Below, in pieces: positions 5,752 through 63,896 of a stretch of DNA of 64,000 nucleotides. The first letter of the stretch is position 1. Each line of letters opens with the position of its first letter. The position numbers and the translations under genes were made by a program. This DNA is from Anaerolineae bacterium (GTDB lineage Bacteria > Desulfobacterota > Desulfobacteria > Desulfobacterales > ETH-SRB1), in NCBI GenBank assembly GCA_035529315.1, contig DATKWZ010000013.1:17807-81806 (forward strand), written 5' to 3'. The notes below the pieces were generated by a model. The model was not told the origin of the DNA and made no database searches. It saw nothing but the letters and a program-made list of their open reading frames with translations.

Positions 5752-5910
5752 TATCAAGGGCATCTATTTTTAAAATGCAAATGTCTTAGGAATTAAGTGG
5801 GCGGCAAAGGATCTAATGGGTGGAAATGGCCAAGAGAAAAAGACTAAATATGGCTTACTGCGTCAAGACAATAACGACGGCCTTTATTTCGGCAGTGGGC
5901 AGGTTACTTT

Positions 5911-6656: not shown

Positions 6657-6661
6657 ATTAT

Positions 6662-7894: not shown

Positions 7895-8110
7895 AATACT
7901 GCCTCATAGACGTGTTAAGTGTTAGGTGTTAGGCAATTGATAAAACAAAGAATTGCCTCAACCTAATCCTCTAATCCCTTAATCCTCTAACCTATACATT
8001 CTGGATTCCGGCTTCCGCCGGAATGACGAAGGAAAGACGCCTTCTCACCCTCTAATCCCTGACCCCCGATCCCTGACCTCCCCTAGCTCTTAGCTCTATG
8101 CTCTCAGCTT

Positions 8111-9487
8111 CTACTGCACCAGGCTCATCAGGGTATCCGCCAGTTCCTGTGTGGTGACGAAAAGCCTGGCCGAAGCATTATAACCGGTCTGATATTTGAT
8201 AAGGTTCATCATCTCCTCATCAATCGACACCCCGGAAATTTCTTCTCTCTTGTTCGCAAACTGGTTCATAAGATTTGTATGATGATCAACACGACTGTTT
8301 GCATACGCAACATCCTGACCGATCTGCGCCACGAAAGAAGAATAATAGGAACTGAACGTTGATTTGCCAGTGTTCATAGTCAGTTCATCTTTTATCTGAC
8401 TCATGGTTACGGCATTTCCACCATCGCCGTTTACCGTCGATGATGCCGCTATCTTATTTACATCCGCGACAATAGCGTCGGCAACCTTTATATATCTGGC
8501 CTCTTCGACTCCTGTGTCAAATGCAAAGAAATTTTCGCCCAGGTTTTGATTAATATCATAACCCAGTATATGCTGGGCATTTACCTGATCAACTATGGTT
8601 TTAGCCAGGTCATCAAGGCTATCCATATAGCCTACCGCCGTGGTGTCGCGAATATCCAGGAAAGCCGCCAGGCTTCCCTTTGTTATAGAACTATTAATCA
8701 CGGTATCTGTGTCATCTTTCAAAACAACGTCATAAAAAGAAGGATCAGAGGGGTGGTTCTCGGTCACGACATCAAGTTCCCATGTCTGACCGCCTTCTAC
8801 CAGCGGCATGCCATTGGACAGGAAGATGCTTATTGAACCACTTGAATCCGTGACAGTATGGAAATTGGCAACCTCGGCCATCTCTAATAAAAGGGTTGTC
8901 CTTTTGTCTCTGAGACTATTCAGACCAGGCTCCTCCGCAACCGCCGTTCCAGACTGTAGAATCCTGTCGTTTATATCAGCAATATCAGATGCATAGCTGT
9001 TGATCTTATCCACCAGAACCGGTATCCGTGTATTTGCGTCATCTTTCACGGAAATCAGCTCATTGCTATATGACCGAAACATGGACGTCAGACTCTGGGA
9101 AACAGACACCAGCGCCTGTCTTTCAGCCTGCCCGGAAGGATTTGTCGACAAATTCTCCCAGGCACCCCAGAATTTATTCAACAATTCATTAATACCCCCG
9201 CCGTCAGTCTCGTTAAATGTCATTTCAATCCTGTCCAGCGCGTCCTTTTTAGCTTCACTGTCCCCGAGATCATTTGCCTGCTCATTTATCTGAGCCTCTA
9301 AAAACCGATCATATATCCTTTCTATCCCTGTTATCTCAACACTTTGAACCAAGGCGCTGAATGCCGCCCGCTGCCTCGAATATCCAGTGGTGTTTGCATT
9401 GGCAATATTGGTCCCTGTAATATTTATCGCTGTCTGATGACTCAACAGACTATCTTTCGCGGTGTTCAATGCGTCGATACCGGACAT
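8111..9487 (-). CDS. flgK: Flagellar hook-associated protein 1 FlgK
   Basis: 458 aa. Axial-protein N-terminal motif INITGTNIANANTTGYSRQ. C-terminal EEMMNLIKYQTGYNASARLF. Confidence 0.9.
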   Translation of the reverse strand: MSGIDALNTAKDSLLSHQTAINITGTNIANANTTGYSRQRAAFSALVQSVEITGIERIYDRFLEAQINEQANDLGDSEAKKDALDRIEMTFNETDGGGINELLNKFWGAWENLSTNPSGQAERQALVSVSQSLTSMFRSYSNELISVKDDANTRIPVLVDKINSYASDIADINDRILQSGTAVAEEPGLNSLRDKRTTLLLEMAEVANFHTVTDSSGSISIFLSNGMPLVEGGQTWELDVVTENHPSDPSFYDVVLKDDTDTVINSSITKGSLAAFLDIRDTTAVGYMDSLDDLAKTIVDQVNAQHILGYDINQNLGENFFAFDTGVEEARYIKVADAIVADVNKIAASSTVNGDGGNAVTMSQIKDELTMNTGKSTFSSYYSSFVAQIGQDVAYANSRVDHHTNLMNQFANKREEISGVSIDEEMMNLIKYQTGYNASARLFVTTQELADTLMSLVQ

Positions 9488-9491
9488 TTGA

Positions 9492-10028
9492 CTATCCTTC
9501 CCTGCTTACAATCCTTCCATTCAGATTGCTTGCTTTTAATCTTCCCGTGTTCATGTAGGTTGAGCCGGGGTAGATAAGCCGGCCTAAAAAATCGATAGAT
9601 TTTCGCACATAAAAGATAGAGGAATCGAGCAACGTTTTATTCTTCTTGTTCAACCCGTGAATGTCCATCAAAAGAGATTTGAGCGCTGACCGGCATTCCT
9701 CAAGATCCCTTTTCTGGCTGTCATCTCCATAGAGCAGCAACGTTGAAAGGCTTCTATCCTTATTGAGGGCCTTATTGAGGGCTTTTCCGTCAAGATTAAG
9801 GACATTAATGATTCTCTCAACCAATTTTGTCCTTGCCTCTTCCACCATCCTGGCCTTTAAAATACAGGTCTCTTTTCTGGAATTACTTTCATACAGTTCA
9901 TCCGCAGAAGATCCTGCCAGGATTTCTCTCTCATTCAGGAAACATTTGTAAAGTTTACCGTAAACATTCAACTCGTTTCTCAGCACTGAAATAAGAGAGT
10001 CATAAAGAAAATGTAGTTCATTATTCAT
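9492..10028 (-). CDS. flgN: FlgN-family flagellar export chaperone
   Basis: All-helical ~178 aa protein between flgM and flgK. The track ORF begins with GTG at 10061 inside flgM. ATG at 10028 (MNNELHFLYDSL) has GAGG 9 nt upstream and lies 5 nt after the flgM stop. Confidence 0.65.
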   Translation of the reverse strand: MNNELHFLYDSLISVLRNELNVYGKLYKCFLNEREILAGSSADELYESNSRKETCILKARMVEEARTKLVERIINVLNLDGKALNKALNKDRSLSTLLLYGDDSQKRDLEECRSALKSLLMDIHGLNKKNKTLLDSSIFYVRKSIDFLGRLIYPGSTYMNTGRLKASNLNGRIVSREG

Positions 10029-10032
10029 TGCT

Positions 10033-10338
10033 TTAAGCCTCGATATCCAGAATTGATTCACCTATCATTTTTCCGGCAATCTTTTCTCCGCCCACATCGT
10101 ATTTTCCCGTTTCTATCTGATCTTGCAATTCCCGAACCTTTTCTTCGCGAACATCCGGGAGTTCTTCGATAGCCTTCTCTGCCTGCTGAATATCCCTTGC
10201 CTCGGATGACAAACTGACCGTCTCTTCCGGAACCACGTCGGTTGCCTGCTTATCAGGCTTGGAATTCACACTCTCCTCATTTATCTTATACCGTGAAATG
10301 AGCTCAATTATGGAATTTCCGGTCTCAGAAATTTTCAT
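10033..10338 (-). CDS. flgM: Anti-sigma-28 factor FlgM
   Basis: ~101 aa. C-terminal KVRELQDQIETGKYDVGGEKIAGKMI matches the FlgM sigma-28-binding region. ATG at 10338 lies 8 nt after AGGAGG. The track start at 10344 is a TTG. Confidence 0.85.
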   Translation of the reverse strand: MKISETGNSIIELISRYKINEESVNSKPDKQATDVVPEETVSLSSEARDIQQAEKAIEELPDVREEKVRELQDQIETGKYDVGGEKIAGKMIGESILDIEA

Positions 10339-10378
10339 CTGCAATACCTCCTTTTTATTTTACTTCCTATTTATAGAA

Positions 10379-10406
10379 ATATCGGCAAGTTTGCAATAAA
10401 ACTTTA
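10379..10406 (-). promoter_or_regulatory. Sigma-28-type promoter for flgM-flgN-flgK(-flgL-csrA-fliW)
   Basis: The minus strand reads TAAAGTTT-N12-GCCGATAT, ~40 nt upstream of the flgM ATG. Confidence 0.8.
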
Positions 10407-10410
10407 GCAA

Positions 10411-10770
10411 CTATTCAGGTTCAAAGGTGTTAGGTGTTCTGCTCCCTGACTCCGGGCCCCCGATCCCTGATTTGAGCTGGCGTAAAAGCATTTGCTGAAG
10501 GCCTATGCCCCCCCCTCTTTTTGCGAGGTCTTCCGCTACCTTCTGATCAACCATTGTGGAATAAATATCCTTGCCTGGAAAGTTGGTTCCGCCTTGCGGA
10601 ACCGTGCGCCGCATGGTCTTGAGCATGTAATTGATGAAGATGGATTCAAAATCAGCGCACGCTTTTTTCAGCTTCTTTTCACTAATTTCCGGTTGCTGTC
10701 GGTCAGGCCTTTTGAGCGCTCCTGTTGGCAACCCGTTTAATCTTATTTCTTCCATCAAATGGCTCCTCAT
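10411..10770 (-). CDS. flgJ: Rod-binding protein (FlgJ N-terminal domain only; no muramidase domain)
   Basis: 119 aa. KKACADFESIFINYMLKTMR and GKDIYSTMVDQKVAEDLAK fit the FlgJ rod-binding domain. The last ~20 codons (GIGGPESGSRTPNTFEPE) are encoded by intergenic-type repeat words. Confidence 0.75.
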   Translation of the reverse strand: MRSHLMEEIRLNGLPTGALKRPDRQQPEISEKKLKKACADFESIFINYMLKTMRRTVPQGGTNFPGKDIYSTMVDQKVAEDLAKRGGGIGLQQMLLRQLKSGIGGPESGSRTPNTFEPE

Positions 10771-10836
10771 TTACTGATCCCTGACCCCTAATCCCTGACC
10801 TCTAATCCTTAATCCTCTACCCTATAATCCCTGATC

Positions 10837-12015
10837 CTATATTACCTTTAAATCCGCCTGGAGCGCCCCTGCAGATTTGATTGTCTGCAATATGGTTATC
10901 AGATCTCCTGGCGTAACACCTATTGCGTTGAGCGCCCTTACAACCTCCTGAATAGTAACCCCCTCCGGTACCACCACCAGGCGATTCTTCTCTTCTTCAA
11001 CACCGATTTCCGTTTCAGTTGTTACAACCGTCTGTCCTCCCGGAGCGATCAGCGTGCCGTCTCCGGCATCAACCGGAGCGCTGCCGGCAGGAGGAGCAGG
11101 GGCAAAGGGGGACGGCTGAGACACCCCTTTTTCCTCTTTTATCTGGATGAACAAATTCCCATGGGCAACGGCAACTGTGGATATTCTTACATTTTCTCCC
11201 ATAACAATCGTGCCGGTCTTCTCATCTATGACCACAACCGCGGGTGAGTCAACCGCAACATTAATGTTTTCAACAATCGAGACAAGCTTCACCATACTCC
11301 CTTTAAAAGATTCCTTTATATTTACAGCAACGGTAGATGAATCAACAAGCTTCGCCTCCACGCCCGCTATCACACCATTTATGGCTGTGGCCACCCCTGT
11401 CGCAGTTGTAAAATCAGGTCGATAAAGATTTATGGAAAGTGACTTCCTGTTTTCAAAATTGTACTCCAATTCCCTTTCGACAAAGGCGCCGTTTGTAATC
11501 CGACCGACAGTCGGGTGATTCTTGGAAATGTTCGCGCCCCCCCCGCCTGCGGCAAAACCTCCGATAGATACAGCGCCCTGCGCCACTGCATAGACATTGC
11601 CGTCCGCCCCCCGAAGCGGTGTCATAAGGAGAGTCCCTCCACGCAGGCTGTTTGCATCACCGATGGATGAAACCACAACATCTATTCTCGACCCCACCTT
11701 GGAGAACGGGGGAAACTCGGCGCTGATCATAACTGATGCCACATTATCTGAAGTCAGGTTATTTCTGGACTCTTCTTTCATCCCAAGCCCCTGCCTGCTC
11801 AACATATTGGCAAGAGTTTCCTTTGTGAATCCGTTTTCAATATCATCGCCGGTTCCAGCCAGACCAACTACCAGGCCATAGCCTACCAACTGGTTATCCC
11901 TGACCCCGCCGATACTGGAAATATCCTTGATACGTACAGCATAAGCATGAGACGCAATAACCAGACCAGCCATTAAAAAAATGGCAATATATTTGAAAAC
12001 TTTCCTTTTTTTCAT
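10837..12015 (-). CDS. flgI: Flagellar P-ring protein FlgI
   Basis: Signal peptide MKKRKVFKYIAIFLMAGLVIASHAYA, then VRIKDISSIGGVRDNQLVGYGLVVGL. I prefer ATG 12015 to the longer track ORF (12054), which overlaps flgH. Confidence 0.9.
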   Translation of the reverse strand: MKKRKVFKYIAIFLMAGLVIASHAYAVRIKDISSIGGVRDNQLVGYGLVVGLAGTGDDIENGFTKETLANMLSRQGLGMKEESRNNLTSDNVASVMISAEFPPFSKVGSRIDVVVSSIGDANSLRGGTLLMTPLRGADGNVYAVAQGAVSIGGFAAGGGGANISKNHPTVGRITNGAFVERELEYNFENRKSLSINLYRPDFTTATGVATAINGVIAGVEAKLVDSSTVAVNIKESFKGSMVKLVSIVENINVAVDSPAVVVIDEKTGTIVMGENVRISTVAVAHGNLFIQIKEEKGVSQPSPFAPAPPAGSAPVDAGDGTLIAPGGQTVVTTETEIGVEEEKNRLVVVPEGVTIQEVVRALNAIGVTPGDLITILQTIKSAGALQADLKVI

Positions 12016-12035
12016 GAAACTATCCTTATTTCTGA

Positions 12036-12737
12036 TCAGAACGGCCATGCCCAATCCACAATACGCGTCAGCCAGCCCGGTCTCATTTTGTCATTAATCA
12101 CGCCATTGCCTGTATAAACAATCTTTGCATCGGCAATATACTGTGATGATATAACATTGTCCGAGGTAATATCCTCGGGTCTGATAATGCCGGAAATAAT
12201 AATGTACTGATCCTCGGCATTTATAGCCAACCGCCGTTTCCCCTCTATAGCCAGATTGCCATTGAAAAGCACCTCGACAACCTTAGCTGTTATTTTTGCC
12301 TCTAATGTACCATCACGGGTCGTTGCGCCCTTGCCCTTAAGAGAATTGGAAGAGGTACCTCCCAGCCCGATTGACGAGCCAAACCTTGAGTTCTGTTCCA
12401 TCATCTTTTTTTCCAATCCCAAAAGGCTCGTTAACCCAGCAGTCGTACTCGTGTCCCTGCTGGTAGTTGTGTCGGCAGAATTGCTGCCCGAGGAAGACTC
12501 GTCTATGATTATTGTAATAATATCATCGACATGCTTTGCTTTATTATCGGCAAAGAGCGAATTTTTCGCATTTTCGCCGGGCCAGATGGATCCTGTGGAC
12601 GGAAGCTGTATTTTCTCCTTTGGAACAGGAACAGGTTCATCTTTTTTTATTGCATTGATATTAGAAGAACATCCGGCAACCACGAACAAAATAAGGATAC
12701 TTATCAAGACTATAAAATTATATGCTCTCCATTTCAT
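12036..12737 (-). CDS. flgH: Flagellar L-ring lipoprotein FlgH
   Basis: 233 aa. Lipobox LFVVAGCSS. Conserved FlgH core DIITIIIDE ... NLAIEGKRRLAINAEDQYIIISGIIRPEDI. Confidence 0.9.
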   Translation of the reverse strand: MKWRAYNFIVLISILILFVVAGCSSNINAIKKDEPVPVPKEKIQLPSTGSIWPGENAKNSLFADNKAKHVDDIITIIIDESSSGSNSADTTTSRDTSTTAGLTSLLGLEKKMMEQNSRFGSSIGLGGTSSNSLKGKGATTRDGTLEAKITAKVVEVLFNGNLAIEGKRRLAINAEDQYIIISGIIRPEDITSDNVISSQYIADAKIVYTGNGVINDKMRPGWLTRIVDWAWPF

Positions 12738-17609: not shown

Positions 17610-17912
17610 TTATACCTTTATATCCACCTTTCCCCCGGGTTCATCGTCAGCAACAGCTCCATCTTTTTCTTTTTTTGCGCTGTTTTCTCCAGGATTCTTT
17701 TCCCTCTTACCACGCTCCTCTTCCTCCCTGGTCACAAGCTGCTCAGCTTCTGCAGGGGCTTTAACTTTTTCTCTCAGCTCCCTGGCCTCTTCGGCTAATT
17801 GAGCTTCAAAATGTCTCTGCTGAACATCAGCCTGATGCTGCTGAACCTGCTGGACACGCTCAATTGCATTGGATTGCAATAATACCTGTTGCACATCAAG
17901 CGATCTGACCAT
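17610..17912 (-). CDS. Hypothetical Gln-rich/charged 100-aa protein, first gene of the accessory operon
   Basis: MVRSLDVQQVLLQSNAIERVQQVQQHQADVQQRHFEAQLAEE, then a highly charged tail. I recognise no domain. Coding is supported by tight coupling to the next gene (stop 17610, next start 17608). Confidence 0.5.
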   Translation of the reverse strand: MVRSLDVQQVLLQSNAIERVQQVQQHQADVQQRHFEAQLAEEARELREKVKAPAEAEQLVTREEEERGKREKNPGENSAKKEKDGAVADDEPGGKVDIKV

Positions 17913-18195: not shown

Positions 18196-18223
18196 TTATC
18201 GTCACAATCCATCATAATCTTTA
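18196..18223 (-). promoter_or_regulatory. Sigma-28-type promoter candidate for the accessory operon (17912 to 15580)
   Basis: The minus strand reads TAAA-N16-GACGATAA. The N16 spacing matches the other minus-strand sigma-28 sites in this window. There is one mismatch in the -10 element. ~285 nt upstream of ATG 17912. Confidence 0.55.
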
Positions 18224-19624: not shown

Positions 19625-20404
19625 TCATAATTTCGGTGACGGAATCGCTAACCCCGTCGCTGAAGCGGGACTACGGGGAATGTGCTCTCTATTGCGGTTC
19701 AAGACGCCCTTTAGTCTCAGTATTGCCTGGGAGTGGATCTGACAGACTCTTGATTCCGTTAATTCCAAGGTCAGACCTATTTCCTTTAATGTTAACTCCT
19801 CATAATAATAGAGGGACAACACCAGTTTCTCTTTTTCGGGAAGTGAATCTATCGCATTCTTCAATATGTTTTTAAGTTCCATGTCGGCAAGAATGGAAAA
19901 AGGATTGTTTTGATCAATTTTTTCCAAAACATCATGCCTGCCGTATTTTTCACAGTAGCTCGGCGGCAAATCATCCTTGCTCAGAATACAGACACCTCTT
20001 GCTTCATCAAGAAGTTTATAATAATTTTCAAGTGATATGCCGAGATAATGCGAAATCTCTTCATCAGATGGATGACATCCGAACTTTTTCCGCAACACCT
20101 CAAGCGCATCTTCAAGCATTGTTTCTTTGCTTCTAACCGATCTTGGCACATCATCTCTTGATCTTAACTCATCTAATACAGCCCCCCTAATCCTGAACTG
20201 TGCGTATGTTTCAAACCGCACATTCTTTGTTTCGTCAAATTTTTCCAGCGCCGACATCAATCCAATTATGCCGGCGCTGATTAAATCGTCTTTACTCACA
20301 TGATCGGGGAGTCTCATGGCAATCCTCCCGACAATGTTCTTAACAAGAGGCACATATTTAATTATCAGTTTTTCACGCTTTTTTTTATCAGTCATTTTTG
20401 TCAA
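19625..20404 (-). CDS. fliA: Flagellar sigma factor FliA (sigma-28)
   Basis: 259 aa. Region 2 (LISAGIIGLMSALEKFD, FETYAQFRIRGAVLDELR). Region 4 HTH (LSLYYYEELTLKEIGLTLELTESRVCQIHSQAILRL). Confidence 0.95.
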   Translation of the reverse strand: MTKMTDKKKREKLIIKYVPLVKNIVGRIAMRLPDHVSKDDLISAGIIGLMSALEKFDETKNVRFETYAQFRIRGAVLDELRSRDDVPRSVRSKETMLEDALEVLRKKFGCHPSDEEISHYLGISLENYYKLLDEARGVCILSKDDLPPSYCEKYGRHDVLEKIDQNNPFSILADMELKNILKNAIDSLPEKEKLVLSLYYYEELTLKEIGLTLELTESRVCQIHSQAILRLKGVLNRNREHIPRSPASATGLAIPSPKL

Positions 20405-51084: not shown

Positions 51085-51297
51085 GTGACAATATCAACCT
51101 ATCAAATCGAAAGCGTTCTTAAAGCATATAGCAAGCAAGTCAGAGTGGAAAACAGGATACAGCATAAACCTAAAAGCTTAAACAAATATGCCGATATTGT
51201 AACCCTGTCATCTGAAGACAATAAAAAAGAAGCTTTTGACAAAATTTCATACAGCCTCATAGATATCCTGCAAAAAGCAAACAATCCGCTTAAATAA
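51085..51297 (+). CDS. Small hypothetical protein (70 aa) behind a near-consensus sigma-28 promoter
   Basis: GTG start 4 nt after GAGGTG. (M)TISTYQIESVLKAYSKQVRVENRIQHK... I recognise no domain. Coding status rests on the promoter and SD context only. Confidence 0.45.
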   Translation: MTISTYQIESVLKAYSKQVRVENRIQHKPKSLNKYADIVTLSSEDNKKEAFDKISYSLIDILQKANNPLK

Positions 51298-51455: not shown

Positions 51456-51617
51456 CTGAGCCTTTTGCTTTTATGTTTTGATCAACCGTTAACTGTAAAC
51501 CGTGAACCGTTATCGGATAAAGCAATTGTCATTAAGCTTGACGTAGATGACAAAAAAATGACGCTTACTGTTGGAACGGTCGTTTGCGGTTCAAAAAAAA
51601 TAAGTGGGGGTGGTATA

Positions 51618-52238
51618 ATGATTGATGATTTAAAAAATTTTTCAGAAGTTAAACCGGTCGTGACAAACCATATAAAAAACGTAAAAGTAGATGACGTTCG
51701 AAATCGAGAACACGTAAGAGTAGATGACGTGCTCAAGGTTGATTACCGGAAGATTCCGCAGAAAGACTATGAGACGTGCAAAGACGACCCGGAAATTATT
51801 TTTGAAAATACTTTTGGCAAACCCTTTGAAGTGCCTAAAATTGAGAATGTTAGCTTAGAATTGCTCTACAAGCTTATATATCAGGCAAACCTGAAAATAG
51901 ACCGTATTTTAAACATACTGGAAAGCAAAAATACTGAGAAATATGAATCTGTGAGCGGTGAATATGTGAATATTAGTGGTTCCGGAATGAGATTCATCGC
52001 AAACCAGAGTTTTTCGATCAACGATATTATTGCGCTTAGAGTTTTTATTCCTTTAGTCTCCAAGACGTGGATAAATATACTTGGAAAAGTAGTCTCAATT
52101 ACAGAATCAGAGTCAGCAAATAAATACGATATTGCTGTTAAATTTGAAGAACTCTCTGAAAGCGACAGGGAAATTATCATAGGATATGTGTTTAAAAGGC
52201 AGAGAGAACTCCTGAGACGCAGCTCAAAACGCCCTTAA
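51618..52238 (+). CDS. PilZ-domain protein (putative c-di-GMP effector)
   Basis: ~206 aa from ATG 51618 (GGGGGTGG upstream). RxxxR motif in VRNREHVRV and (D/N)xSxxG motif NISGSG, separated by ~84 aa instead of the usual ~20-30. The longer track ORF (from 51465) starts inside repeat words. The stop overlaps the flaG stop (TTAA). Confidence 0.7.
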   Translation: MIDDLKNFSEVKPVVTNHIKNVKVDDVRNREHVRVDDVLKVDYRKIPQKDYETCKDDPEIIFENTFGKPFEVPKIENVSLELLYKLIYQANLKIDRILNILESKNTEKYESVSGEYVNISGSGMRFIANQSFSINDIIALRVFIPLVSKTWINILGKVVSITESESANKYDIAVKFEELSESDREIIIGYVFKRQRELLRRSSKRP

Positions 52239-53279: not shown

Positions 53280-53307
53280 TTATCGGAAATCTTTTCTTAA
53301 AACTTTA
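53280..53307 (-). promoter_or_regulatory. Sigma-28-type promoter for fliS-flaG
   Basis: The minus strand reads TAAAGTTT-N12-TCCGATAA, ~105 nt upstream of the fliS ATG. Confidence 0.75.
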
Positions 53308-53469
53308 GATAAAAATAACTTTAAATACGATTCTGTTATGTTATACTGTTTCTCAAAAATATGTTATGTTTCAAAATGAGTTTTTGCGGTTCAAGTTTTA
53401 CAGGAACAGCGCCGAATAAAACAATCAACCAAAGCTTTGGACTGTTGAGAAACTAAAAAGACAATAATT

Positions 53470-56133
53470 ATGACCTCAAACGTAAATGCAAAAAAATCCA
53501 TCAGGAAAATAGCCGTTCTTTTTACAGACATTATTGGATCAACCATGTTTTTCCAATCTTACGGCAATCTGGCTGGACGCAAAATGCTCCAGCAACACGA
53601 AGACATTGTTTCAAAAGCAACCACAGATTTCGGCGGAACCGTCGTCAAAAATATTGGCGACTCGATTCTTGCTTTTTTTACCAACCCTCAGGAAGCGACA
53701 AAGGTCGCTATACGAATACAAAAGGAGTTTAACCGATTTAACAAGCAAAAAGATGCTGAGTATGAAATCCATATTAGAATTGGAATTCACTTTGGCGATG
53801 GTATTATCGAAGATAAAGATATATTTGGGGATGTGGTGAATATAGCCTCCAAGCTGACAGATCTTGCGGGAAGCGATCAAATATTCATATCTCACGATGT
53901 TTTTACTCTGGTTAACAGATTATCTTCCCTTCAATTTGAACCTGTTGAAATTCCGGATAAAAACAATGCTCCAATAAAACCGGAAATTTATCAGGTTCTA
54001 TGGGACAAAAGCATCGACCTTGATCCAACCATGATGTCGGTCATTTATATGAGACCTGTCCGGAAATTGGGAATCGGCAATTTTGATAACATCTGGGACA
54101 ATCTCATCAAGGCTAAAGCCCTATTCTGGAACGGCAAAATTGATGAAGAAGCAATAATGGATGATCAATCCGTTATACTCATTGCAAAAAATCCGTCTCT
54201 GCTTATGGATGTAGCCGGTGATATGTTAAATTTTCTTATGGAAAATTTAAACACTGATAAAGAAACAGGTATCCTGCCTGTACAGATAATTATCGACGCG
54301 GGTCCCTGTCTGGAAATCGACAAACTGGTTCGTGAAGGGTTTAAAGCAGACTGGGAAAAATTCAATCCGGGAACAATCTACATATCACCTTCTGCCTGTA
54401 AATTAATAGAAAAAGAACAAGGCAGCCTGGTTATTCCTTCAACATCGCCCGGTCCGAACCAAACCGGTCCGGACCAAACTCAATCCTTCTATGAAATAGC
54501 CCCCGGTGATTATAAACAAAAAGAAAATGCCTTGCTTTTCTTATATCAGGATGCCTTAAGTATAGGACAGAATTCACCCTGCTTTTACTGTGGCAACAAA
54601 GAACATGCTGCACAGAACTGTCCCTCCAAACATCTTGTCGATATGACCAATGTTTTAAATAAACTGGGATATCTTTCTTTTGATAAAATCAACGACATTT
54701 TCCTTGCGTATCTAATGAGTTCAGAAGAGGCAAAGCAAAAAGCTGTAAAATCTCCGGAAGAATCACGCGAGCAGGAAACGTTGGCCTGCCTTGGATTCTA
54801 TGAACTCAAACAGGTCTTTCAGCTTCGTTTCTTCAAAAGTATCTGGGATAATAAAAACAATGAGTGGGACAGGATCACAGCAACAAAGAATAGCGGTGAC
54901 GGCAAAGGCGGTTTTATATGGTTAGCTCAAGATTGCATCCGCGTTTCCAACCTTCTTCAGGCGGAATCGATTTTGCAAACCTGTTTGGAAAAATATCCTG
55001 CCGATTACAGGGTGTACTGCGCACAGTGGTTTCTGAGTATAGAAAAAGCCGATCTCTTCCAGAGCGAATATCACCTTGACAAGGCGCTTCATTACGCGAG
55101 GACAAAGCTTCAGAAAATTTTTATCCTGCTTTTACTCTCCCGTTTTTATGATCTTACAGGCGATACTGACAAGGCTCTAAAAAAAATAAGAGAAATCTTT
55201 ATCATTGATCCCTTTTGCACGGAAGCCGCATATCAGGAGATCATATTTAAATTCCGGCAGGAAAAAATGAATGAAGCACTGGAACAGCTCATTAAACTTA
55301 TTCGGACAAATCGGGAATATTATGTTAACGCCCTAATTGACCCGGACCTGGCCAAGTTTAACAGGATAATTCATCCGGAACTCAAGAAACTTTTCAGGGA
55401 AACCCGTCAAAAAGCACAGAAAATGGCTTACAGCGCTGAAAGAAAATTTTCCACACTCAGAAAATTTTTGGAACAAGGCGATGATGAGATTGAAAAAGCA
55501 GATGCCGTATTGTTAAGGATAAAAGAATTGGCGCACACTGATAGTTACTTCGGATACCTCGACATGGCCTATCTTGGCGATTCCATGATCAGCGCCTGCC
55601 GCAGAATCATAATCCGTCGGAAGAAAGAGTTCATAGATGCTGCTAAAAAAACACACGGGCGCATAGGAAACATTTTCAGCCTTGTAAGAGATTACCATTC
55701 CAGGCTTCTTTCCAATTCTGCCTATAAACAATTAAGAATCGTTCAATCGGAATTTAATCAAATTTTGGAAGCGATAAAATTTAATGATTTTAACGGATTT
55801 CTGGAAATGTCTATACGATATAAGGAAATTTCAAAAGAATTGGATGAGATAGAGCCGGAATTAAAAAGATTAAAAACAATACTGGACATTAAAACATTTC
55901 TAATCATTTTTTTAAAAAATTCGGCCATCATTCTTTCTGTCATCCTGTTTGCAGGCACAATTATTTTCCCCGCCATAGTTTATTATCTTAATACTTTTTT
56001 CCCGGAATTTAATATTTTCACGGCAGGAGATACCGGCTTCTATCACAAGTATTTTATCATTTTCGGAGTTCTTGGAGGATTATCATTTTCCTTTTTCAAA
56101 TCTTTCAAAGCCTTTTTAAAGCGAGATCTTTGA
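53470..56133 (+). CDS. Multidomain protein: class III adenylate/guanylate-cyclase homology domain + CCHC zinc knuckle + helical/TPR-like region + two C-terminal TM helices
   Basis: 887 aa. CHD residues 12-150: metal Asp in AVLFTDIIGST and KNIGDSILAFF, Lys in VVKNIGD, and GDVVNIASKL (Asn kept; Lys where Arg is usual). CX2CX4HX4C at residues 371-384 (CFYCGNKEHAAQNC, nt 54580-54621). Long helical region. C-terminal TFLIIFLKNSAIILSVILFAGTIIFPAIVYYL and YFIIFGVLGGLSFSFFKSF. Confidence 0.8.
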   Translation: MTSNVNAKKSIRKIAVLFTDIIGSTMFFQSYGNLAGRKMLQQHEDIVSKATTDFGGTVVKNIGDSILAFFTNPQEATKVAIRIQKEFNRFNKQKDAEYEIHIRIGIHFGDGIIEDKDIFGDVVNIASKLTDLAGSDQIFISHDVFTLVNRLSSLQFEPVEIPDKNNAPIKPEIYQVLWDKSIDLDPTMMSVIYMRPVRKLGIGNFDNIWDNLIKAKALFWNGKIDEEAIMDDQSVILIAKNPSLLMDVAGDMLNFLMENLNTDKETGILPVQIIIDAGPCLEIDKLVREGFKADWEKFNPGTIYISPSACKLIEKEQGSLVIPSTSPGPNQTGPDQTQSFYEIAPGDYKQKENALLFLYQDALSIGQNSPCFYCGNKEHAAQNCPSKHLVDMTNVLNKLGYLSFDKINDIFLAYLMSSEEAKQKAVKSPEESREQETLACLGFYELKQVFQLRFFKSIWDNKNNEWDRITATKNSGDGKGGFIWLAQDCIRVSNLLQAESILQTCLEKYPADYRVYCAQWFLSIEKADLFQSEYHLDKALHYARTKLQKIFILLLLSRFYDLTGDTDKALKKIREIFIIDPFCTEAAYQEIIFKFRQEKMNEALEQLIKLIRTNREYYVNALIDPDLAKFNRIIHPELKKLFRETRQKAQKMAYSAERKFSTLRKFLEQGDDEIEKADAVLLRIKELAHTDSYFGYLDMAYLGDSMISACRRIIIRRKKEFIDAAKKTHGRIGNIFSLVRDYHSRLLSNSAYKQLRIVQSEFNQILEAIKFNDFNGFLEMSIRYKEISKELDEIEPELKRLKTILDIKTFLIIFLKNSAIILSVILFAGTIIFPAIVYYLNTFFPEFNIFTAGDTGFYHKYFIIFGVLGGLSFSFFKSFKAFLKRDL

Positions 56134-56788: not shown

Positions 56789-59700
56789 CTATACCCATCC
56801 GGCCATTGCACTGCTGGTCTGAGCCGAAAGCCATTGACCCTGGTTCTGAATCTTGGCCAGAGCCAGTTCCATGGCCACGAACCGAGTTATCATTGTCTCC
56901 ATCTTCCGGTCAAGACGTGCCTCCATGTTATCAATCTGGGTCTCGAAACTGTCAATGCTGTTTTGAAGTGAAGTCAGCTTGAAGGCCACATAGCCGTCGT
57001 ACGCATCAGTAATGCCGTATAATTCCCTGTCAAACTTTTCAGCAGCGCCCATGGTAATTTTGACGTTGCCTTGATCTTCTCCTTGAGAAGCCAGTTGGGC
57101 AGGGGTAAGAGTGATCTTGATGGACAGCCCCTCCACGCTGGTTGTTTCATCTTCTGCAGGCTCGGACCCTGTAAGGGCCTGTCCCGAACCGGTGGCTGCC
57201 TCGCCATTGATTGTTCCGGCCACGTCAACGCCGGAATCGCTCCCGTTGATTATGCCGGTTGAGGCTGAAATAGTTCCGAAATTGAGTCCGGCAGGTTCTG
57301 TCAGCGTCAGGGTCATGAGGCTAGCGCCCGTGGTATCGTCCGTAAGCTTTATTTTGCCGTCAACCACGCTTGCTGTGCCGCCAAGGGCGGTCCCTATTTC
57401 GGTAAGAAGGGCACCAATATTCTTATATGCCCCGTCATAGACATTAAAAGTAACCTCATCTATGACTGTCCCGTCATGCTCCACCCCGTTGATTTTAATA
57501 GTATCGGCAGTGCTGGCCGCATAGCCGTCAATGGCGTTAAATGCAGTGGCGCCCGTAATGTTAACCGCGCTGCTTTTGTTTACAACATCACCGGTAATCT
57601 CTTCCGCGCCGCTCACCGTCGCATACTGCTTAACGGTAAATGAAACACTGCTTCCGTAATCGTCGCTTTCCAGCACAAGCTGGTCGCCGGCATCCTTTGA
57701 TGCGGTAACAGCCATGGCATAGCGGCCTTCGGTGGTCACTTCCATTGTGCCGAAATCGAGACTGCCGAGGCCTTCATTATTGCACGTCACAGAAATTTCA
57801 AGCTGGCTGCTTCCTGACGTGTTATCGGTAAGGATCAATTTGCCGTTGGAATCGATGTTTGCCGAAACATCGTTCCCATAGGCAGCCTCTATGGCCGACA
57901 ACAGCCCCTGGACAGTATCCGTGGTTTTTTCCTCGATGGTGTATGTGCCTGATATTGATGTTCCGCTTCTTGTCTTTCCTGAGAAAGATATGGTGTCACC
58001 GTTAACGACATTATTGGCCTCTGCGCCGGTATCAATATCCTCCCATACAGTACTGGAAGTAATGGCGTCGTCGGCTACCCCAATCAGGATATTTGCCGTT
58101 GTCCCTGTCCACAGCTCGGTATAGACCGTATCCAGCTCGGAATTGATGGCATTTACGATATCATCGATAGACTTTCCGTTGCCCGTGTCATCAAGGGCAA
58201 TGGTGGCTATACTGTTGCCCTGGGTAATGACTATGGTCTCATCGCTTGCAATTCCACCGCTTAAATCTGTCACGCCCGTGATAGTTGCCTGCTCCGCTGC
58301 CGTGGTAATCGCGACGGCGTAATCACCAGCCACGGTATCTCTGGTATGTGATATATATGCAATATCACCATCCGTGGTGGTTCCTTCAGCTATAAAAATT
58401 CTTCTCACGCCGGCAAAATCGCTGACCAGGGCATCTGTAAAATCACTGTCATTGAGCGAGAGCACGCCGTTCATATCGGAGTTGATTCCGATCAGCGAAA
58501 GGGCATTCATGTCTGTTGGAAGGTCTTTGATCGTGCTGATCAGGATATTCTGGAGACTTGACTTGATGGATGACAGGGTCCCGTCGCCGCTGAGCAAGCC
58601 TGCTGATTCCGTATCCTCATCCCACGCAAACTGGTCATTTATATATTCCAGTATTTCATTATACTTGCCTATAAAGCTCTGAACAGATGATTTTATGCCG
58701 TTCGTATCCCGTGAGATGTTCAAATCAACCTGTGAGCCGGCTTCTATCTTCTTTAAGTTTATGGTAACTCCCGCAATAACAACGGTAATGATGTTGGTAG
58801 AACTGGTTATGGTTGTGCCGTCTATCTTGACGCTGGCGTCCTTGCCCTCGGCTGACTGCATGGTGTAGCCTTCGGTAGAGGCGGCAATCGTTCCAAAGTC
58901 AAGAGTGCCGCCACTGACATTGTTATTGGCGATTAAACTGAGGCTTAACTGACTATCTCCGTCGGTGTCGTCTTCAATCTGAATCTTTCCATCTACGAGG
59001 CTGGCCGTGGCCGTCCTTGAGCCGGTTTTGCCAAAACCATCGGTCGTGTTGTTAATTTGGTCAAGAAGTGTCTGTATCGTCTCATCCGTTGCGATTGTGT
59101 AATCGAAATCAACTACTGAACCATCGCCTCTTGTTCCCTGGATAGTAATTTTATCTCCCGCCACCACATTGGAATTTGTTCCGTTAGACCAAAGGTTGGT
59201 TAAGACGGTTCCTGTGGTAATTTGTGTCGCAGCATCCCCATTAGTATTCACGACTGATTCCTGGGAATGCACCTCGGCTACATCACTCTGCCCCCCGGCC
59301 AGAATCCCTAAGGTCTGAAGCACATTATTCTTGTCGCTGAAAGTGGTCGTCCCGCTTATATCGATGTAGTATCTGGTTGTTCCGTCTTCGGTAATACTTT
59401 CCACGGAGGCTGATATGCCGGCCAAGTCATTTATATTGCTTGCAATTGTTGATAGGGATTGCGTGGCCAGATTAATGTCAAGCGTACTTGTAGTGCCTAC
59501 TGTTATATCGGTACCTGTCTGGGCGCTGGTTAGACCAAGAAGTGAACCAACCGCCACCTCACTGCTCGAAAACCTCCCGGACTCGGCCCCGTCACTGGTG
59601 GGATTTTTTATCGTGGGTGTTGTGCTGTCAAGAAATCCCAACCCGGTGGAAGTGTTTTGCAGGATATTAACCGTGTCGGCGCTCGCGTCAAAAATATTGA

Positions 59701-60295
59701 AAGCTTCTTCACCTGTATTATCGCTTGTCAATATCAAACGATAATCGGTGTCGGAAACCGTCAATATTGAGGCCGTCACCCCTGTGGCATTTGAACCGGA
59801 GTTCACGTTATTGATCTTGTCGCGGATGTCCATCAGGTCATCGGTGTCATCCACTCTGACCGCCCTGCCGTTGATAATGAATTCTCCGGTCAGAACCAAT
59901 GCCTCGTCGTAGCTTGCAAAACTCTTAGACGAAATCTTTCGGGCCTCGGCAATGCTCGAACTTGTTGTCATTTCAATGGTGTGAGACCCTGGAGCAGCAT
60001 CGACACTTGTGGTAATAGACATAAAATCCGATGCACTGTAATTGGCGGAATCGGTAGTTAAAGACGAGGTATATACATTGAAGGAATCACTCTTTGCCAG
60101 TGTCACTGACTGCGTCTTCAGGGACAAAAGCATGGTATTCATGGATCGAAAGGCAGATAGCTTTGCCTGATAGTCACTCTTTCTATCTTCAACTATATCC
60201 ACACGGCGGTGTTCAATCGACATGAGCTGGTCGATCATAGACCGCCAGTCAAAACCGCTTGAAAGGCCACTTATAAGGTTTGTGCTGAGAGCCAT
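56789..60295 (-). CDS. fliD: Flagellar filament cap protein FliD, unusually large (1168 aa)
   Basis: N-terminal ISGLSSGFDWRSMIDQLMSIEHRRVDIVEDRKSDYQAKLSAF. C-terminal LQNSIDSFETQIDNMEARLDRKMETMITRFVAMELALAKIQ. Three internal DGK(I/L)x(I/L)xD(D/N)TxGxS...L(D/N)FGT modules. Confidence 0.9.
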   Translation of the reverse strand: MALSTNLISGLSSGFDWRSMIDQLMSIEHRRVDIVEDRKSDYQAKLSAFRSMNTMLLSLKTQSVTLAKSDSFNVYTSSLTTDSANYSASDFMSITTSVDAAPGSHTIEMTTSSSIAEARKISSKSFASYDEALVLTGEFIINGRAVRVDDTDDLMDIRDKINNVNSGSNATGVTASILTVSDTDYRLILTSDNTGEEAFNIFDASADTVNILQNTSTGLGFLDSTTPTIKNPTSDGAESGRFSSSEVAVGSLLGLTSAQTGTDITVGTTSTLDINLATQSLSTIASNINDLAGISASVESITEDGTTRYYIDISGTTTFSDKNNVLQTLGILAGGQSDVAEVHSQESVVNTNGDAATQITTGTVLTNLWSNGTNSNVVAGDKITIQGTRGDGSVVDFDYTIATDETIQTLLDQINNTTDGFGKTGSRTATASLVDGKIQIEDDTDGDSQLSLSLIANNNVSGGTLDFGTIAASTEGYTMQSAEGKDASVKIDGTTITSSTNIITVVIAGVTINLKKIEAGSQVDLNISRDTNGIKSSVQSFIGKYNEILEYINDQFAWDEDTESAGLLSGDGTLSSIKSSLQNILISTIKDLPTDMNALSLIGINSDMNGVLSLNDSDFTDALVSDFAGVRRIFIAEGTTTDGDIAYISHTRDTVAGDYAVAITTAAEQATITGVTDLSGGIASDETIVITQGNSIATIALDDTGNGKSIDDIVNAINSELDTVYTELWTGTTANILIGVADDAITSSTVWEDIDTGAEANNVVNGDTISFSGKTRSGTSISGTYTIEEKTTDTVQGLLSAIEAAYGNDVSANIDSNGKLILTDNTSGSSQLEISVTCNNEGLGSLDFGTMEVTTEGRYAMAVTASKDAGDQLVLESDDYGSSVSFTVKQYATVSGAEEITGDVVNKSSAVNITGATAFNAIDGYAASTADTIKINGVEHDGTVIDEVTFNVYDGAYKNIGALLTEIGTALGGTASVVDGKIKLTDDTTGASLMTLTLTEPAGLNFGTISASTGIINGSDSGVDVAGTINGEAATGSGQALTGSEPAEDETTSVEGLSIKITLTPAQLASQGEDQGNVKITMGAAEKFDRELYGITDAYDGYVAFKLTSLQNSIDSFETQIDNMEARLDRKMETMITRFVAMELALAKIQNQGQWLSAQTSSAMAGWV

Positions 60296-60430: not shown

Positions 60431-60458
60431 CTATCGGCAAAATTTTCCTTATACTTTA
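60431..60458 (-). promoter_or_regulatory. Sigma-28-type promoter for fliD
   Basis: The minus strand reads TAAA-N16-GCCGATAG, ~135 nt upstream of the fliD ATG. Confidence 0.75.
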
Positions 60459-60742: not shown

Positions 60743-61861
60743 ATGATTAAACGAGACCATTATTCAGCATGTCTTGCAACCGCCGCAAAAAGATCTCCTG
60801 TTACGGCGCTCCTTGGCCCCAGACAATGTGGAAAAACGACACTCGCGCGCATATTCGGCAAGCAGCATAAGTCCCACTACTTTGATCTGGAATCGCCGGC
60901 AGATCAACAAAGATTACAAAATCCGGAGTTGATGCTCAATTCTCTTCAGGGACTGATTATTCTTGATGAAATTCAAATCAAGCCGGAACTGTTCAATATA
61001 TTGCGGGTCTTGGTGGACAGACCTGAAAACCGGCAGCATTTTTTAGTTCTCGGCAGCGCCTCTCCTCACATTATCAGGAATGTTTCCGAAACATTGGCCG
61101 GCAGGGTTGAATTTATTGAGCTTGCAGGGTTCAATATTCAGGAAATAAATAATATTGAGCGATTATGGCTTCGAGGTGGGTTTCCCCGCTCTTTTCTGGC
61201 TGCCTCGGAGTCTGACAGCTGGGCATGGAGAGATGGATTTATACGAACATTTCTTGAGCGTGATATTCCAATGCTGGGCATTACAATTGCTTCAACAGCA
61301 ATGCGGCGATTCTGGACAATGTTGGCCCATTTTCATGGTCAAACATGGAATGCTTCAGATGTTGCCAGATCAATGGGGGTAAGCGATAAAACGGTCCGAT
61401 CATACCTTGATATTCTCACAGCCACCTTCATGGTCCGTCAGCTTCAGCCATGGCACGAAAATCTGCACAAACGCCAGGTGAAATCCCCTAAAATATATTT
61501 CAGAGACTCAGGACTGCTGCACAGCTTGTTAAATATACCGGACTATCATAGCCTGACAGGTAATCCTCGACTGGGAGCATCCTGGGAAGGATTTGCCCTG
61601 GAACAGGTGTTGCAAATTATGCACCCGACTGAAGCATATTTTTGGGCCACCCATAGCGGGGCGGAGCTTGACCTTTTGTTTTTCCAGAAAGGAAAGCGCT
61701 ATGGCGTTGAATTTAAATTTAATGAAGCGCCTAAGATCACAAAATCAATGCACATTGCGGTTAAAGATCTTTCCCTGGATTATTTATGGGTCGTATATCC
61801 CGGAAAAGAAGAATATCCTGTAACGGATAAAATTATGGTTCGACCGTTAAATAGTGTCTGA
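60743..61861 (+). CDS. AAA-family ATPase with a DUF4143-type C-terminal domain
   Basis: 372 aa. Walker A GPRQCGKTTLAR. Walker B LIILDEIQ. C-terminal KRQVKSPKIYFRDSGLLHSLL is typical of the AAA_14/DUF4143 architecture. Confidence 0.85.
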   Translation: MIKRDHYSACLATAAKRSPVTALLGPRQCGKTTLARIFGKQHKSHYFDLESPADQQRLQNPELMLNSLQGLIILDEIQIKPELFNILRVLVDRPENRQHFLVLGSASPHIIRNVSETLAGRVEFIELAGFNIQEINNIERLWLRGGFPRSFLAASESDSWAWRDGFIRTFLERDIPMLGITIASTAMRRFWTMLAHFHGQTWNASDVARSMGVSDKTVRSYLDILTATFMVRQLQPWHENLHKRQVKSPKIYFRDSGLLHSLLNIPDYHSLTGNPRLGASWEGFALEQVLQIMHPTEAYFWATHSGAELDLLFFQKGKRYGVEFKFNEAPKITKSMHIAVKDLSLDYLWVVYPGKEEYPVTDKIMVRPLNSV

Positions 61862-63622: not shown

Positions 63623-63714
63623 GGTTTTATCCTCCTTGATTTTTGGTTTTGTTTAGCCGTCAGCTTTCAGCTTCTCTTGCTTTCAGCTTTGAGCTTTCAG
63701 CCTTTAGCCCCTCC

Positions 63715-63726
63715 GGCATCCTTGCC
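63715..63726 (-). promoter_or_regulatory. Candidate CsrA-binding hairpin in the fliC leader (GGA in the loop)
   Basis: The minus strand reads GGCA-AGGA-UGCC, a 4-bp stem presenting AGGA. CAAGGAUG matches the core of the CsrA SELEX consensus. A second GGA site overlaps the SD (CAAGGAGGAUAAAACC-AUG, 63623-63640). Confidence 0.55.
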
Positions 63727-63859
63727 AAAGAGTTTTTACTCTTTACCCCGTTAAATCTGTAAGCTATTTAACCGGGGCTTAATCCTTACTCCTTAAATCC
63801 TTAATGCCCACCTCCTTTCACCGTATTTATGGACTAATCTTTTTATCCATTTGATATGT

Positions 63860-63887
63860 TTATCGGAAGGTAGAGGGAATTGCTTTA
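63860..63887 (-). promoter_or_regulatory. Sigma-28-type promoter for fliC
   Basis: The minus strand reads TAAA-N16-TCCGATAA, ~240 nt upstream of the fliC ATG. Confidence 0.75.
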
Positions 63888-63896
63888 GGATTTTTT

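Follow-up and report, generated by a model that had tools for sequence, protein, structure and literature searches.

The active sites of class III nucleotide cyclases span a dimer interface, at which the metals are bound by one subunit and a Lys/Asp/Asn/Arg set is supplied by the other. In the tandem cyclases, which include the membrane adenylyl cyclases (AC) of mammals with their C1 and C2 halves, soluble AC and the alpha/beta soluble guanylyl cyclase (sGC), two cyclase folds are combined, one of them degenerate; the catalytic residues are split between the halves, which is the defining feature of these enzymes, and a pocket for regulation is frequently provided by the degenerate half. The mycobacterial protein Rv0386 represents a cyclase-ATPase-TPR architecture, and long TPR-type helices also follow an N-terminal class III cyclase domain in the family TIGR04510. 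Second-messenger proteins are also found under flagellar sigma factors: the FliA regulon of Escherichia coli includes the cyclic di-GMP (c-di-GMP) enzyme PdeH (YhjH) and the PilZ protein YcgR. BifA of Pseudomonas putida is a further c-di-GMP protein under FliA (PMC5300878). Here, we describe a gene in a 64,000-nt stretch of DNA (contig DATKWZ010000013.1, positions 17,807 to 81,806, forward strand; hereafter the window, in whose positions all coordinates are given) and consider it modestly probable that its product is a tail-anchored class III adenylate cyclase of the sigma-28 (FliA) late flagellar regulon. This reading draws on a conserved catalytic set in the N-terminal domain and on a sigma-28-type site that recurs upstream of homologous genes. 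We know of no class III cyclase that is a conserved member of the flagellar sigma-28 regulon, and none was found in the literature searched. The gene and the parts of its product are as follows (AF2, AlphaFold2 model; CHD, cyclase homology domain).

53470..56133, plus strand: 887-aa open reading frame (ORF) with an ATG start, putatively membrane-anchored class III cyclase-family protein
53491..53949, plus strand: CHD1 (residues 8-160), cyclase domain with D20, K60, D64, D117, N124 and K128, assigned by PF00211, Ma1120 and AF2
54025..54429, plus strand: CHD2 (residues ~186-320), degenerate cyclase fold without metal-binding Asp or transition-state residues, assigned by AF2 and Foldseek
54580..54621, plus strand: CX2CX4HX4C knuckle CFYCGNKEHAAQNC (residues 371-384), present in 249/249 family sequences
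54652..55869, plus strand: all-helical region (residues ~395-800), TPR-like repeats at ~481-623 and then long helices (AF2)
55921..55989, plus strand: hydrophobic segment 1 (residues ~818-840) by Kyte-Doolittle hydropathy, within a continuous AF2 helix (777-843)
56044..56106, plus strand: hydrophobic segment 2 (residues ~859-879) followed by a basic tail, AF2 helix 855-886, weaker hydropathy

Comparison with described systems

The catalytic domains of the mycobacterial cyclases Ma1120 and Rv1900c (LipJ) are closest to CHD1, with 27-28% identity and a target-normalized template modeling (TM) score of 0.85-0.90. They share with it the Lys/Asp adenine pair, the two metal-binding Asp residues and the expected action as a homodimer, whereas the protein in the window has Lys for the transition-state Arg, lacks an alpha/beta-hydrolase domain and extends beyond CHD1 with a second, degenerate CHD, the CCHC knuckle, helical repeats of ~400 aa and a predicted membrane hairpin at the C-terminus. 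Membership in the NCBIfam family LipJ was rejected, as the match reached 58.7 bits against a cut-off of 800 and was confined to the cyclase domain. As in mammalian membrane AC, soluble AC and sGC, two cyclase folds are present of which one is degenerate; however, CHD1 holds all of the catalytic residues and CHD2 none. The C1/C2-type pseudo-heterodimer class was therefore rejected as well, given that two CHD folds in one chain are found but not the complementary catalytic split. Furthermore, the AF2 model cannot be superposed as a pair on C1/C2 or soluble AC (target-normalized TM ~0.3).

An N-terminal class III cyclase followed by long TPR-type helices is common to this protein, the Rv0386-type proteins and TIGR04510. 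The family described here differs from the Rv0386 type in having neither a P-loop ATPase nor a helix-turn-helix (HTH) domain, with CHD2 and the knuckle in the place of the ATPase, and the knuckle and the membrane hairpin are absent from both Rv0386-type and TIGR04510 proteins. Assignment to TIGR04510 ('peptide modification system cyclase') was rejected at 28.5 bits against a cut-off of 400, again with the cyclase domain alone being matched. The nearest functional analogy is offered by PdeH, YcgR and BifA, as second-messenger proteins whose control by a flagellar sigma factor links signaling to motility. One PilZ protein encoded in the window likewise lies under a sigma-28-type site, which parallels YcgR. 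These proteins act on c-di-GMP, whereas the window protein is a predicted maker of cyclic AMP (cAMP), and there is no homology between them.

The catalytic domain

The ATG at 53470 has no in-frame start codon upstream of it. The start at 53308 given by the first-pass annotation of this DNA is intergenic, between fliS and the cyclase gene and 162 nt upstream of the ATG, and coding begins at 53470. In the public gene call for an identical protein (P0001, 100%), translation starts at Met26 of our numbering, which yields 862 aa and removes the first strand and the metal-binding Asp20; since homologs conserve the N-terminus, the ATG at 53470 is favored.

Residues 8-153 of CHD1 match the Pfam model Guanylate_cyc (PF00211) with 54 bits (cut-off 21.9), and the best sequence match in the PDB is the Mycobacterium avium cyclase Ma1120 (E 1e-18). 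A full-length AF2 model generated from 110 homologs (mean predicted local distance difference test score, pLDDT, 84.1; predicted TM score, pTM, 0.69) aligns with the Ma1120 chains at a target-normalized TM of 0.85-0.90, a root-mean-square deviation (rmsd) of ~3 A and 26-28% identity. The class III signatures that had been read from the N-terminal sequence are thus confirmed by profile and fold: D20 and D64 are the metal-binding Asp residues, K60 and D117 form the adenine-specifying pair and align with the Lys and Asp of Ma1120, N124 is the transition-state Asn, and K128 occupies the position of the Ma1120 transition-state Arg in the alignment. Regarding nucleotide specificity, for which such an alignment had been proposed, the K60/D117 pair is of the ATP type. 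Among 202 family CHD1 domains, D20 is kept in 177, D64 in 182, K60 in 184, D117 in 180 and N124 in 178, and position 128 is Lys in 177 and Arg in 11. The six catalytic positions are accordingly retained in ~88-91% of the domains, down to 25-30% identity, and ~10% of the domains lack some catalytic residue. Because Lys128 replaces the transition-state Arg, the active site is a variant, non-canonical one. Following the established residue rules of class III cyclases, the conserved set argues for a working active site with Lys for Arg and with ATP as its substrate.

A conserved sigma-28-type site upstream of the gene

The sigma-28/FliA consensus of Salmonella is TAAAGTTT-N11-GCCGATAA (PMC4866697), and the -10 element recognized by sigma-28 has been described (PMC12784957). 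Both strands of the window were scanned with the degenerate pattern T[ACT]AAGTTT-N11/12-G[CT]CGA[TA]AA at a threshold of at least 14/16, and the following putative sites lie in or near the filament locus.

53391..53418, plus strand: sigma-28 (FliA)-type promoter of the cyclase gene, TCAAGTTT-tacaggaacagc-GCCGAATA (N12 spacer), ending 51 nt before the ATG
53280..53307, minus strand: divergent sigma-28-type promoter of fliS-flaG, TAAAGTTT-N12-TCCGATAA
51038..51064, plus strand: near-perfect sigma-28-type site TAAAGTTC-N11-GCCGATAA before the DVU0524-like gene and the PilZ gene
60431..60458, minus strand: sigma-28-like site of fliD

The cyclase site scores 15/16 by the degenerate pattern, equal to the best flagellar sites of the window, and agrees with the strict Salmonella consensus at 12/16 bases. 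Seven sites reach the threshold in the window, and all seven are intergenic and correctly oriented, with 89% of the window being coding; the genes downstream of them are flgM-flgN, fliS-flaG, fliD, the DVU0524-like-PilZ pair, the cyclase gene and two other ORFs. Both fliA and flgM are themselves located in the window. A generic scan for sigma-70 promoters and terminators around the cyclase gene performed no better than on shuffled sequences.

The scan was extended to 2.0 Mb of sequence, counting both strands, in which 48 family genes had enough upstream sequence and a site was assigned to a family gene if it lay within 450 nt upstream. Thirty of the 58 sites found were in such a position and covered 27/48 family genes, so that about half of all sites fall in the ~1% of the sequence immediately upstream of family genes. 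A stricter pattern gave 31 matches, all of them before family or flagellar genes save for one window site before a small HTH ORF, and non-family cyclase genes of the same data set had no sigma-28-type site upstream (0/34). The site was further detected before members with 29-37% identity to the window protein (loci L025, L038, L039 and L041) and in loci without flagellar neighbors (L007, L008, L009, L011, L012, L014, L024 and L029). Across the family, the -35 and -10 boxes are conserved around spacers that bear no relation to one another, so that common descent of the upstream DNA does not account for these sites. At L010 and L013, the cyclase gene follows the PilZ gene after 9-29 nt and lacks a separate site, and the DVU0524-like-PilZ pair is preceded by one, which fits a single sigma-28-driven DVU0524-like-PilZ-cyclase operon. 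We take these sites to mean that, over a large part of its range, the family is predicted to belong to the FliA regulon.

Recruitment into the late flagellar regulon had been proposed in the first-pass annotation from the position of the gene. This proposal is now supported by different evidence, the conserved sigma-28-type site; its original basis is weak, because homologs occur in many gene contexts. Gene position is variable, and predicted regulon membership is conserved.

Gene neighborhoods

The window covers a ~60-kb flagellar supercluster that is transcribed almost entirely from the minus strand. Its gene order begins with fliW, csrA, flgL, flgK, flgN, flgM, flgJ, flgI, flgH, flgA, flgG and flgF, continues with fliA, flhG, flhF, flhA, motB, motA, flgE, fliK, fliI, fliG, fliF, fliE and flgB, and ends with genes for a sigma-54 response regulator, a histidine kinase and a TPR/SPOR protein, followed by flaG, fliS, fliD and flagellin. 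The following genes are relevant to the cyclase gene.

10033..10344: flgM
19625..20404: sigma-70-family protein with r2/r3/r4 regions (fliA), beside flhG
51085..51297, plus strand: DVU0524-like gene (70 aa, FlgM-associated type), NCBIfam NF041863 34.1 bits, below the cut-off of 40
51465..52238, plus strand: PilZ-domain protein, Pfam PilZ 47.9 bits, again a cyclase neighbor in L002, L010, L013 and L027
52235..52594, minus strand: flaG, Pfam FlaG 64.6 bits
52735..53175, minus strand: fliS, Pfam FliS 137.7 bits and TIGR00208
56155..56604, minus strand: orf149, encodes a small helical protein and separates fliD from the cyclase gene; FlgN match of 17 bits, under the cut-off
56789..60295, minus strand: fliD, 1168 aa, Pfam FliD_N and FliD_C

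Pfam and NCBIfam searches bear out that the ORF interrupts the minus-strand filament genes, with fliD and orf149 on one side and fliS and flaG on the other. The cyclase gene is the sole plus-strand gene between fliS-flaG and fliD and shares the last 13 kb of the window with three other genes on this strand.

Loci of homologs were obtained from exact-protein look-ups, from one genome scan, for which a single protein was used as the query and which returned five close relatives and one spurious TPR match, and from one metagenome scan with the family alignment. Thirty-seven loci were informative, meaning that at least 3 kb of flanking sequence was available on one side, and a flagellar or motor neighbor was defined as one within 7 kb. 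Such neighbors were present at 8/19 loci with at least 41% identity to the query and at 0/18 loci below 41%. Three arrangements can be distinguished. The side of the PilZ gene, flaG, fliS and fliD is occupied in the window, in L002 (Eth-SRB1, 78%), L010 (73%), L013 (67%) and L027 (45%); the gene is convergent with fliW-csrA-flgL-flgK-... in L015 and L018 (44-46%); and it lies directly downstream of motA and an OmpA-like motB in L020 and the shorter L023 (43%). A FliI-like neighbor in L030 was not counted, since it is ambiguous and could belong to an ATP synthase or be the ATPase of a type III secretion system. With flagellar genes making up an estimated ~1-2% of such genomes, chance is an unlikely explanation for adjacency that recurs in different arrangements. 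Among the loci without flagellar linkage, L005 (76%) lies between recD2 and an ATPase gene, L001 (78%) has biosynthetic genes downstream, and L012 and L009 have unrelated neighbors. Flagellar adjacency is thus far from universal in the family. Whether homologs are always linked to the flagellum had been set out as a test of the first-pass reading: linkage was found, in three arrangements, at the 41% and higher identity levels, and its constancy was not.

At L007, L008, L011 and L019 (48-58%), a same-strand run of TusA-DsrE2-cysteine desulfurase-NifU precedes the cyclase gene. The conserved block shared by these four loci (~5300-9800) comprises rubrerythrin, cytochrome b561-like, flavodoxin, SHOCT, TusA, DsrE2, cysteine desulfurase and NifU genes. 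The cyclase genes here have their own sigma-28-type site in the 200-300-nt gap after NifU; the upstream sites of L011 and L019 are identical, and these two loci may be near-duplicates. In the most distant members (L047, L051 and L059; 22-29% identity), a ~260-aa ORF, a histidine kinase gene and a sigma-54 response regulator gene are found downstream on the same strand.

A second cyclase fold, a zinc-knuckle motif and a predicted membrane hairpin

Residues ~186-300 had previously been described as a loose repeat of the CHD1 pattern and as a possible degenerate partner domain. A separate AF2 model of residues 165-350 (pLDDT 80.5, pTM 0.75) was compared with the PDB using Foldseek, and the top 50 matches were all class III cyclase catalytic domains, with a best E of 3.7e-5 and TM values of ~0.45-0.53. 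Profile-profile comparison of CHD1 with CHD2 was not significant (probability 9%, P 0.003), although the register was right. A second, degenerate cyclase fold is therefore accepted from the AF2 and Foldseek results and not from the profile-profile alignment. CHD2 has neither the metal-binding Asp residues nor the Asn/Arg helix, and its family-invariant residues are P196, W209 and D276. A role as catalytic partner does not follow, as a CHD1:CHD2 pair lacks a complete site: with all catalytic residues in CHD1 and none in CHD2, such a pair could not be active, and CHD2 is consequently better viewed as an autoinhibitory decoy or as a dimerization or regulatory module.

The knuckle at residues 371-384 has the exact retroviral-type ligand spacing noted at first reading, and the chance expectation of this pattern in a protein of this composition is ~2e-5. 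It lies within a strongly conserved block (residues ~355-410, with CPSK at the end of the motif) that is the best-conserved non-catalytic block of the protein. The motif C-[FY]-Y-C-x4-H-x4-C, mostly followed by PSK, is present in every one of the 249 family sequences spanning this region, even where overall identity falls to 22-25%. Conservation of the knuckle in homologs, on which the earlier interpretation depended, is thus invariant. The Pfam model zf-CCHC (PF00098) scores 18.1 bits over its full 18-residue profile (cut-off 20.8), and among 10 relatives, two exceeded the cut-off (24.0 and 21.9), two scored 13.7-15.6 and six had no match. The ligands and their spacing are thus those of a zinc knuckle, and membership in PF00098 is borderline. 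Finger 1 of the HIV-1 nucleocapsid protein is CFNCGKEGHTARNC, with the arrangement CX2CX4HX4C. Compared with zf-CCHC of this HIV-1 type, the spacing, the aromatic residue after the first Cys and the Gly after the second Cys are the same, whereas the single copy in a bacterial signaling protein, the extra invariant Tyr and the CPSK tail are different. The knuckle may serve as a zinc site with a structural role, bind a ligand or RNA, or act as a thiol switch.

For residues 160-887, no covering model was found in Pfam or NCBIfam, and a PDB sequence search with residues 350-887 returned just one weak match, a consensus TPR protein. Residues 395-886 are all-helical in the AF2 model, with a pLDDT mostly of 85-97, and TPR_14 scores of 17-20 bits stay below the cut-off in this protein. 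The earlier description of a helical, TPR-like part with two transmembrane segments therefore holds, with sub-threshold TPR scores and a weaker second hydrophobic segment; residues 804-844 form the one stretch above the Kyte-Doolittle cut-off. The pattern fits a C-terminal membrane hairpin, a predicted topology in which the bulk of the protein would be cytoplasmic. Because P834 is invariant and Y839, P845, Y858, K860 and G866 are invariant or nearly so, it is suggested that the hairpin is more than a passive anchor.

Distribution and architecture of the family

A word-indexed search yielded 358 relatives, mostly of ~890 aa. An exhaustive HMMER search of 1.84 billion representatives, for which only the non-cyclase part (residues 160-887) was used as the query, gave 347 clusters at 50% identity, 153 of them with E <= 1e-30. 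All named members originate from metagenome-assembled genomes (MAGs). Their labels are Desulfobacterales, Desulfatiglandales, Desulfovibrionales, Thermodesulfobacteriota and the generic 'Deltaproteobacteria' or 'Pseudomonadota', with one Nitrospina fragment, and the family is mostly from Desulfobacterota. Annotations of the members are generic ('adenylate/guanylate cyclase domain-containing protein' or 'hypothetical protein').

In order to survey the architectures, the alignment was split into five sub-profiles and 268 family proteins were scored. The main architecture is CHD1-CHD2-knuckle-helical-hairpin. One variant of ~700-740 aa lacks CHD2, and another of ~700 aa lacks CHD1 and has a degenerate cyclase-like domain at its start. 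Tandem paralogs occur at L051, where a 700-aa cyclase-less variant (6992-9094, plus strand) lies directly upstream of an 883-aa cyclase-bearing member (9622-12273, plus strand); the 700-aa paralog consists of a degenerate cyclase-like N-terminus, the knuckle and the helical region. This tandem suggests hetero-oligomers of active and inactive family members. The first-pass annotation did not recognize the architecture from the literature, and indeed no curated Pfam or NCBIfam model covers it. Literature searches on cyclases with a zinc knuckle, bacterial CCHC knuckles, tandem bacterial cyclases and FliA-regulated adenylate cyclases found nothing relevant, with incomplete coverage. Both the conserved architecture of this class III cyclase family and its predicted regulatory placement are undescribed.

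Proposed function and alternatives

For a tail-anchored adenylate cyclase of the late flagellar regulon, transcription would begin once FlgM has been exported, after completion of the hook-basal body, and the enzyme would for this reason appear solely in cells finishing a flagellum. The C-terminal hairpin would anchor the protein in the inner membrane and may contact a membrane partner through its conserved residues. Two chains would pair head-to-tail via CHD1:CHD1, which would create two active sites making cAMP at the membrane, and CHD2 would most likely hold CHD1 in an inactive intramolecular pair or serve as a dimerization or regulatory module. The knuckle would represent a structural or ligand-sensing zinc site. 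The output would couple a cAMP signal to the motile state.

Several observations weigh against this proposal. The promoter of the cyclase gene is predicted from its sequence, and a recognizable site is missing upstream of 21/48 family genes. Flagellar neighbors occur in no member below 41% identity, and three loci (four if L011 and L019 are counted apart) with TusA-DsrE2-cysteine desulfurase-NifU genes upstream hint at another connection. All family members are from MAGs, which makes the flagellated state of every host uncertain, and a cAMP receptor gene was not found near the cyclase gene. Activity could be reduced or altered by the exchange of the transition-state Arg for Lys. Finally, the AF2 monomer shows no canonical head-to-tail CHD1/CHD2 pair, and the tandem structures of soluble AC and AC9 align with it over ~400 columns at a target-normalized TM of ~0.3 and an rmsd of 19-20 A; owing to this poor superposition, the model supports neither the autoinhibition idea nor its opposite.

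The variant active site also lends itself to a different reading, which we regard as fairly unlikely, in which the protein is a pseudo-enzyme and acts as a helical scaffold that is anchored in the membrane and belongs to the flagellar pole or motor, its cyclase domains merely dimerizing or binding nucleotide. The Lys found in 177/202 members, the ~10% of CHD1 domains missing a catalytic residue, and the ~700-aa group and first L051 paralog, in which just a degenerate cyclase-like domain sits on the knuckle-helical core, would all be compatible with it, and the conserved hairpin residues and large TPR-like region suit protein binding. However, if there were no catalysis, retention of the six catalytic positions in ~88-91% of the 202 domains would be difficult to account for; moreover, the replacement of Arg by Lys is conservative, and Arg itself is found in some members. 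A quite unlikely alternative is an ordinary signaling cyclase without a flagellar role, whose place in the filament locus reflects a local rearrangement and whose upstream motif is coincidental. Relatives as close as L001 and L005 (76-78%), as well as L007-L009, L011 and L012 (39-58%), have no flagellar neighbors, as would be expected in that case, and so is the motif's absence before 21/48 family genes. Coincidence is difficult to reconcile with the concentration of about half of the 2.0-Mb motif sites in the ~1% of sequence upstream of family genes, with strict-pattern matches that are otherwise flagellar save one, with the absence of the motif from 34 other cyclase genes and with flagellar adjacency in three different arrangements.

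The same low credence is given to a cyclase that reports sulfur, Fe-S or redox status, in which the Cys3His site would bind zinc or an Fe-S-related ligand or act as a thiol switch, and the flagellar link would be secondary. Here, the invariant Cys/His ligands and the same-strand position directly downstream of TusA-DsrE2-cysteine desulfurase-NifU (L007, L008, L011 and L019) are suggestive, but the synteny runs on through GrpE-DnaK-rubrerythrin... and may be the gene order of one clade, such neighbors are not seen in other clades, and the 200-300-nt gap holds the gene's own sigma-28-type site. With one clade's gene order as the likely cause and its own site retained, the NifU/TusA link is kept as a minor rival. 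An antiphage cyclase of the Pycsar/CBASS kind, whose cyclic nucleotide would trigger an effector, is extremely improbable, in line with the opinion of the first-pass annotation, and was rejected as an identity for this protein. PADLOC PycC profiles do match weakly (best 45.5 bits) and a candidate defense ATPase (PDC-S01) is encoded 4.6 kb away; nevertheless, the PycC matches are confined to the generic cyclase domain, no effector is adjacent, the neighbors being fliS and orf149/fliD, the upstream promoter is of the flagellar sigma-28 type, and the ~890-aa family is conserved across many Desulfobacterota MAGs in core-genome contexts and not in the patchy distribution of defense islands.

Returning to the late flagellar adenylate cyclase, a more specific version of it, unlikely in our estimate, is a checkpoint in flagellated Desulfobacterota, in which a dedicated tail-anchored cyclase is made only after FlgM export, held off by CHD2 and switched on when the knuckle or hairpin senses a flagellar cue. 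Candidate cues would be RNA or a nucleotide as ligand, the stator, the export apparatus, or the proton-motive force. If true, it would provide the first case in which cAMP signaling of bacteria is coupled directly to the completion of flagella, as well as the first retroviral-type knuckle with a function in one of their signaling enzymes. More generally, cAMP signaling in sulfate-reducing and related anaerobes is almost unexplored, and if the gene is a late flagellar adenylate cyclase, motile cells of this phylum would make cAMP while building a flagellum, providing a testable link by which the state of motility could act on metabolism or behavior. The family would then also offer a naturally occurring fusion of an active cyclase domain to its own dead copy, with an invariant retroviral-type knuckle in a bacterial enzyme, two mechanistic puzzles that are approachable with one purified protein. 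The combination of a conserved FliA site and an invariant knuckle will be surprising to specialists in second messengers and in flagellar regulation.

Other features of the window

The PilZ gene runs 4 nt into the convergent flaG. The product of orf149, which is convergent with the cyclase gene at a gap of 21 nt, is possibly FliT/FlgN-like; at L010, a FliT gene lies within the filament gene set, between flaG and fliS. The window fliD is ~2.5x the length of the fliD of L010 and L013 (471-474 aa), and long Thr/Ser/Gly-rich inserts part its FliD_N from its FliD_C match.

Two of the sigma-28-type sites of the window precede other ORFs. The site at 1659-1686 (minus strand) lies before a 71-aa HTH_17 protein (1377-1592), which is followed by a multiheme cytochrome gene (828-1331), and that at 18196-18223 (minus strand) lies before an unannotated 100-aa ORF (17610-17912); the HTH_17 and multiheme cytochrome genes and the 100-aa ORF are possible non-structural members of the regulon. 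The flagellin gene (site region 63623-63889, minus strand) has a weaker site, TAAAGCAA-N12-TCCGATAA, and a leader of ~240 nt with AAGGAGGA at the ribosome-binding site. Such a leader would suit control by CsrA/FliW, and fliW and csrA are present at 5911-6656. Between fliD and the flagellin gene, an AAA_14/DUF4143 ATPase gene is located in antisense (60743-61861, plus strand); it matches the PADLOC candidate defense family PDC-S01 with 276 bits and looks like an insertion into the filament locus.

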